Below are positions 53,359-53,462 of a stretch of DNA of 64,000 nt, in pieces. Each line of letters starts with the position of its first letter. The stretch's first letter is position 1. The position numbers and the translations under genes were made by a program. The stretch is from IMG/VR virus record IMGVR_UViG_3300030098_005439, one strand, 5' to 3'. The notes beneath the pieces are model-generated. The model searched no databases. It worked only from the letters and a program-made list of their open reading frames with translations, and was not told the DNA's origin. The DNA comes from an uncultured virus (IMG/VR IMGVR_UViG_3300030098_005439) (lineage: Duplodnaviria > Heunggongvirae > Uroviricota > Caudoviricetes).

Positions 53359-53421
53359 TGACGAAACGATTCCCTGGTTTCAGGGAGTCGTCTGCGGATA
53401 GCTACCGCACTGATGAGATCA
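53359..53421 (+). ncRNA. hammerhead ribozyme, type II topology
   Basis: CGAAA, 11-bp stem III, GUC cleavage triplet (53390-53392), 5-bp stem I, CUGAUGAG core. Confidence 0.82.
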
Positions 53422-53462
53422 ACGTTGGGTCGCTCCCAACTTTTTAATAGAGGTAAGAAACA

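Follow-up and report, generated by a model that had tools for sequence, protein, structure and literature searches.

The DNA analysed here (the window, 64 kb in all) is organized in two blocks of opposite orientation. The rightward (+) block encodes an AAA ATPase, a primase/helicase, an SNF2-type helicase, an exonuclease, a Sak4-like protein and a family A DNA polymerase, and the (-) strand block holds the portal and virion proteins. The junction of interest lies between the genes for a DUF2201 protein and a DUF6744 protein (Table 1). Upstream of it the message comprises the ATPase, a 287-aa ORF and the DUF2201 gene, whose stop codon (53352-53354) is followed by a second in-frame TGA; the spacer that leads from there to the DUF6744 gene measures 108 nt. 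The nearest record, G001, is a 56.7-kb virus with a CheckV completeness of 100 and is identical to the window across 53200-53600. A search of the cultured-phage collection returned no match to the DNA or to the DUF6744 protein, and the DNA polymerase is at most ~25% identical to that of any cultured-phage record; the relatives described below come from marine metagenome and viral contigs.

Some other properties of the window were also recorded. It contains two distinct replication/recombination gene sets (2305-7269 versus 55102-63911), one with a helicase/primase-type gene, a second helicase and RecE-like and RecT-like genes, the other with primase, SNF2 helicase, exonuclease, Sak4-like and PolA genes. 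There is a run of ten Ns at 34103-34112, in the structural block, and the window spans 64 kb compared with 56.7 kb for G001. The leftward and rightward blocks are separated by a 412-nt region with a near-perfect hairpin of ~24 bp (45080-45150), which draws spurious matches to Rfam microRNA families.

Table 1. Features at the DUF2201-DUF6744 junction and along the + strand block of the window; L005, L010 and L012 are loci from relatives with a diverged copy of the same junction
Feature	Position	Strand	Remarks
Two-hairpin junction elements	46250-46332, 46914-46996, 48447-48526, 49949-50096, 52046-52133, 54321-54390	+	In the + strand block
Upstream gene, DUF2201 protein (putative metallopeptidase and VWA-like domains)	52134-53354	+	PF13203 2.1e-33; PF09967 2.6e-18; phrog_1314
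Open stem II, 3' strand UGAC	53359-53362	+	C11.1 = 53362; GAC before GAAA also in L010 and L012
Core GAAA	53363-53366	+	G12-A13-A14 = 53363-53365, A15.1 = 53366; invariant in 4/4 variants
Stem III hairpin	53366-53391	+	53366-53376/53381-53391, 11 bp including A15.1-U16.1; loop GUUU at 53377-53380; in MFE fold
Cleavage triplet GUC	53390-53392	+	C17 = 53392
Predicted scissile bond, C17 (53392)/U1.1 (53393)	53392-53393	+	Site is GUC in L010 and L012, GUA in L005
Stem I hairpin	53393-53409	+	53393-53397/53405-53409, 5 bp; 7-nt loop AUAGCUA at 53398-53404; in MFE fold
Core CUGAUGA (C3 to A9)	53410-53416	+	Identical in L005; CUGAAUGA in L010 and L012
Stem II, 5' strand G(A)UCA	53417-53421	+	G10.1 = 53417; A53418 bulged
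Conserved accessory hairpin, GUUGGG-UCGCU-CCCAAC	53424-53440	+	6 bp, 3' of stem II; scored terminator-like with U5
Shine-Dalgarno GAGGU (53450-53454) and ATG (53463)	53450-53465	+	Unpaired in MFE fold
Downstream gene, DUF6744 protein	53463-54320	+	PF20529 1.2e-07
Strong terminator-like hairpin 3' of the DUF6744 gene	54331-54362		

Four nucleotides past the upstream stop codon, the + strand of the spacer begins a complete canonical hammerhead core (53359-53421), made up of C-GAAA, the A15.1-U16.1 pair, the GUC triplet and CUGAUGA. The strand C3-U4-G5-A6-N7-G8-A9 expected of a hammerhead is present as CUGAUGA, and G12-A13-A14 is followed by the A15.1-U16.1 pair (A53366-U53391), as it is in all four variants described below. 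Base 17, which must not be G, is C53392 (C or A in the relatives), and the G10.1-C11.1 pair is formed by G53417 and C53362, where L005 has U-U. The window copy thus departs from the core nowhere. Stem III has a single G-U pair (53370/53387), and stem II amounts to four base pairs and one bulge (G53417-C53362, U53419-A53361, C53420-G53360 and A53421-U53359). Loops cap stems I and III and stem II is open, which is the type II permutation. A preliminary description of this DNA had placed each of these elements, and on rereading 53340-53465 we found every one of its coordinates correct.

That description had also pointed to the Rfam hammerhead models as a check, and here the outcome is divided. 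Hammerhead_II (RF02276) is the best family at the site and aligns end to end (model positions 1-66), but its score of 24.8 bits falls short of the family's gathering score (37), and E is 0.0035 when 201 nt are searched and 1.1 for the whole 64-kb window. By itself this score is not significant at the scale of the window, where the Rfam scan found no family at or above its own gathering score. Since the same model gives sub-threshold matches at E <= 1 in six of 14 control bacterial genomes, the 24.8 bits prove nothing alone. We consider whether an ordinary structured spacer might resemble the hammerhead consensus by chance, a reading for which the window-scale E-value and the control genomes both speak. 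So does a third figure, obtained with a type II descriptor that requires the core CUGA-any base-GA, a stem I hairpin, a base other than G at 17, U16.1, a stem III hairpin that opens with A-U, GAA and a 10.1-11.1 pair: in its relaxed form, with stems of at least 4 bp each, it matches 13 of 300 dinucleotide shuffles. Matches as good as the one at the junction (stem I >= 5 bp, stem III >= 8 bp) occur in none of the 300, and on both strands of the 64-kb window the descriptor finds exactly one site, the hammerhead at 53359-53421. Neither Rfam nor the descriptor disclosed a second credible hammerhead, or another ribozyme family, in the window or in G001. The sole other match, at 19918-19965 of G001 (16.7 bits), was rejected as lying inside an ORF and having poor stems.

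The meaning of a sub-threshold score can be gauged from L299, an unrelated 125-kb viral contig with four clean type II hammerheads between its genes. None of the four reaches the gathering score, only one is detected at E <= 10 within its locus (27.3 bits), and matches on the contig range from 24.2 to 34 bits. It follows that such scores are usual for short phage hammerheads of type II, and on this basis the value of 37 is a conservative curation cut-off and not a structural criterion. The L299 hammerheads lie at 207-250, 1448-1491, 2880-2923 and 3838-3881, and two of them flank the DUF2201 homologue of that contig (32% identical).

Evidence of another kind comes from the same junction in related viruses. 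Loci were gathered through relatives of the DUF6744 protein, and 12 of these include the upstream junction. A hammerhead is found between the DUF2201 and DUF6744 genes in ten of the 12. Four of its sequences are distinct: L003, L007 and L008 match the window exactly (the window type), L005, L006, L011, L013 and L015 match one another (the L005 type), and L010 and L012 each have a sequence of their own. The DUF6744 proteins of the L005-type loci, L010 and L012 are 58-62% identical to that of the window; these are diverged lineages. The two remaining loci, L004 and L009, are identical to each other and have two plain hairpins at the junction, without a hammerhead, and the more distant L283 (DUF2201 protein 54% identical) likewise has hairpins and no hammerhead there. 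Among marine viral and metagenome contigs, therefore, four of six distinct junction types carry a hammerhead, and the junctions that lack one indicate that it is dispensable. Further members were sought by several scans. One set of viral-contig patterns gave, among the matches listed, only two weak in-gene descriptor matches; patterns with an 8-letter core, able to find extra-A copies only, gave no further copies among the matches listed; another viral-contig pattern scan returned only the known L005-type contigs and one chance match; and a scan of genome contigs with the DUF6744 alignment found no relative.

Relative to the window copy, L005, L010 and L012 have large insertions, all of them confined to the loop of stem III, the place where a hammerhead tolerates insertions. 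At E <= 1, Rfam returns no hammerhead match for any of the three loci, and the long insertions probably hide them from its models. The insertions themselves (L005 1868-1940, L010 1305-1395, L012 1334-1430) adopt branched folds and share an AGCC...GCAGGC-like stretch; they have no Rfam match, and their consensus fold is uninformative owing to a poor alignment. Deviations from the core are few. Positions 10.1/11.1 are U/U in L005, whose cleavage site is GUA, and L010 and L012 have CUGAAUGA, that is, an extra A after A6. Both core variants are among those reported for natural hammerheads (Perreault et al. 2011, PMC3088659), where an insertion after A6 is described as a known variant of low activity and U10.1-U11.1 as the best-tolerated mismatch; the copies of L010 and L012, at least, may therefore be slow. 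Neither variant is seen in the window copy. In the MFE fold of L005, CUGAUG of the core is paired with CAUCGG (1959-1976), and the pairing overlaps the 5' strand of the accessory hairpin discussed below. This alternative could possibly act as an on/off arrangement in L005; L010 and L012 do not conserve it.

The four distinct sequences were aligned (alignment A4), with the structure written by hand from them. Of 101 cells in the helices, 95.0% hold a standard pair, compared with 36.4-47.5% when the partners are slid, and eight pairs have changed on both sides versus 0-2 when slid. None of 500 shuffles matches A4 in paired fraction, in both-side changes or in covariation score; as the sequences number four and themselves supplied the structure, these numbers are supportive and do not amount to a formal probability. 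Stem III (helix 2) has 97.7% of its cells paired and three pairs changed on both sides, and stem I (helix 3) has 95.8% paired and two such changes, for example from G-C to A-U at 1.2/2.2. Of the three helices around the core, stems III and I are backed by covariation; stem II, with three columns, is 83.3% paired and shows none. Across the same four diverged variants the unpaired core, GAAA and CUGA(A)UGA, is kept while the surrounding helices vary. Conservation is also apparent at shorter range. In L002, whose DUF2201 protein is 96% identical, the spacer has no differences in 108 positions, versus 103 differences in 2,079 positions of the flanking genes (P ~0.004 under equal rates), and the DUF2201-DUF6744 spacer looks to be under purifying selection.

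The presence of the motif at the orthologous junction in three further lineages, with compensatory changes, together with the chance control effectively refutes a fortuitous resemblance, and we regard that explanation as scarcely credible. The type II hammerhead reading of the preliminary description, by comparison, holds up, given a canonical core, the right topology and the retention of that core in three diverged lineages with compensatory changes in stems I and III. We conclude that 53359-53421 (+) is very probably a genuine type II hammerhead situated in the spacer between the two genes, where it is predicted to cut the polycistronic message after C53392.

Less straightforward is how well the hammerhead would fold and cut. 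In a nearest-neighbour model the closing of stem II costs ~+2 kcal/mol, its pairs have probabilities of 0.7-2.8%, and the MFE fold contains a competing UGAU/AUCA hairpin. The preliminary description had suggested that the weakness of stem II may leave the ribozyme slow or regulated. The stem is short, but that is not unusual: according to Perreault et al. (PMC3088659), stem II is often only 2 bp. The same paper reports that, in the majority of type II hammerheads, loop I pairs over at least 4 bp with the nucleotides immediately 3' of stem II, a pseudoknot that it calls critical for fast cleavage; the contact is not obligatory. On reading the four variants we found no loop I-3' tail pseudoknot of at least 4 bp consistent across them.

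Where that tail would lie, all four variants have instead a further hairpin 3' of stem II. Its UCGCU loop is invariant in 4/4 variants, and its stems covary, with three pairs changed on both sides (helix 4). In the window it is followed by five U residues (53441-53445), and the two together score as terminator-like; no U-run is present in L005, L010 or L012, which argues that termination is not the conserved role of this accessory hairpin. Stem I and the accessory hairpin appear to be interchangeable among variants, in that GGGUCGCUCCC forms the accessory hairpin in the window and L005 and stem I in L012, and CGGUUCGCUACCG forms stem I in L005 and the accessory hairpin in L010. The loops of the two could pair with one another over 3 bp in the window (AGC:GCU) and 4 bp in L010 (UAGC:GCUA). 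In L005 and L012 this shrinks to 2 bp (CG:CG), so that a tertiary role for the accessory hairpin can at most be hypothesized. When hairpins with a similar loop were sought across the window as a dispersed repeat, no such family emerged. We also considered that the accessory hairpin might be the closed stem II of another permutation, and rejected this: GAAA does not directly follow it, and the upstream GAAA-stem III-GUC is intact.

Two readings that go beyond a plain hammerhead bear on these observations. In the first, the element is an active hammerhead that depends on the 3' accessory hairpin, through a loop-loop contact with stem I or through a factor that binds both loops, and its cleavage is conditional or tunable. 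The invariant loop, the covarying stems, the confinement of the U-run to the window, the exchange of hairpins between positions and the possible loop pairs in the window and L010 are all consistent with this. Against it, Watson-Crick complementarity of the loops is not maintained in L005 and L012, the independent sequences number four, and the L299 hammerheads have 3-nt stem I loops with neither such a hairpin nor an obvious tertiary contact. We consider this dependence possible, on the unlikely side. That the accessory hairpin supplies the tertiary stabilization usually given by the pseudoknot is speculative. A more specific form of the proposal is that this marine-phage lineage has a hammerhead sub-type in which the 3' accessory hairpin replaces the loop I-3' tail pseudoknot, its U(A/C)GC(U/A) loop contacting the similar stem I loop directly or via a bound factor, with a ribozyme that is rate-tuned or conditional and not constitutive; this we put forward as a rather doubtful conjecture. 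If it were true, the orthologous copies would form a tuning series, with a consensus core, a U10.1-U11.1 mismatch, an A6 insertion and large stem III insertions.

The second reading takes the element to be a relic, a catalytically weak or dead hammerhead that cuts little or not at all in vivo, in which selection keeps the hairpins as mRNA-stabilizing, attenuating or protein-binding structures comparable to the two-hairpin elements of other junctions. The weak stem II, the lack of a convincing tertiary pseudoknot, the terminator-like score of the accessory hairpin with U5, the reported attenuating variants in relatives (the A6 insertion and U-U at 10.1/11.1) and the plain hairpins that occupy the junction in L004/L009 and L283 would all fit such decay. 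A function of hairpins alone, however, does not explain why GAAA, CUGA(A)UGA, the A15.1-U16.1 pair and a base other than G at 17 are kept in 4/4 variants; the window copy has no core deviation, and U10.1-U11.1 is reported to support more cleavage than other mispairs (PMC3088659). We judge a relic to be improbable, and an intact hammerhead remains our preferred reading of 53359-53421.

The position of the hammerhead can be compared with other junctions of the + strand block, several of which carry an element of two hairpins (Table 1): a terminator-like hairpin with a U-run, then a hairpin of the form UGUGC-~6 nt-GCACA, then a Shine-Dalgarno sequence. The first hairpin is GC-rich, and AAC..GAGGUAA and a start codon come after the second; two copies of the element are 73% identical across 83 nt. 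The preliminary description had noted that the hammerhead sits where other junctions have this element, and had taken this to support the view that the two-hairpin elements are RNA-processing sites. The positional statement is true, and at this same junction L004/L009 and L283 have hairpins of that kind in place of a hammerhead; the processing role belongs to interpretation. A shared role of the hammerhead and the two-hairpin elements in RNA processing or stability would fit the arrangement. Read as DNA, the second hairpin forms a 16-bp palindrome that could equally serve as a protein operator.

If the hammerhead works as established hammerhead chemistry suggests, the following course of events may be envisaged. 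During synthesis of the polycistronic RNA, stem III would fold first as a hairpin and stem I after it; once CUGAUGA-GAUCA has been transcribed, the short open stem II would close the three-way junction, and the RNA would cut itself between C53392 and U53393. The upstream message, with the ATPase, the 287-aa ORF and DUF2201, would be left with the 11-bp hairpin and a 2',3'-cyclic phosphate at its 3' end. The DUF6744 message would begin at the stem I hairpin with a 5'-OH end, have a free Shine-Dalgarno sequence and end at the hairpin at 54331-54362. The two halves would in this way acquire separate stabilities and separate translation. In the window, L010 and L012 only a few nucleotides separate the start of the hammerhead from the stop codon of the upstream gene, so that a ribosome terminating there would be expected to block its folding transiently. 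A search for RNA data sets covering 52900-53900 listed none, and three metatranscriptome runs contained next to none of its sequence.

Comparison with known systems places the element among the type II hammerheads described from bacteria, prophages and metagenomes (RF02276, PMC3088659), with which it shares a canonical core, looped stems I and III, a short open stem II and a location between genes of a phage operon. It differs from the typical members as described there in that the window copy scores below the gathering threshold, lacks a pseudoknot of at least 4 bp and has the conserved UCGCU-loop hairpin after stem II. It is also reminiscent of the clustered prophage hammerheads that flank single genes, for which the cutting of long phage transcripts into gene-length messages has been proposed (PMC3088659) and of which L299 provides an example; unlike them, it is present as a single copy in the window. 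A third parallel is HHphage of the haloviruses HF1 and HF2, reported upstream of an early helicase gene (PMC3088659), which is likewise a single hammerhead near a start codon in an early/replication block; the two differ in host domain and in ribozyme variant, and the parallel is drawn from the published description. The course of events envisaged above agrees with what has been suggested for phage hammerheads in general, namely the processing of long transcripts (PMC3088659, PMC6765202). This suggestion is itself unproven, and a 2019 review calls the roles of bacterial self-cleaving ribozymes "largely elusive" (PMC6765202).

Since 2011 hammerheads have been known from the spacers between phage genes, and the present case will not surprise specialists. 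What it adds is a marine-phage hammerhead missed by the Rfam threshold, along with relatives that Rfam does not detect, and a conserved accessory hairpin, perhaps an alternative means of tertiary stabilization. It also adds an orthologous series at a single junction, running from a consensus core through two published attenuating variants to plain hairpins, which could be used to test what cleavage contributes.
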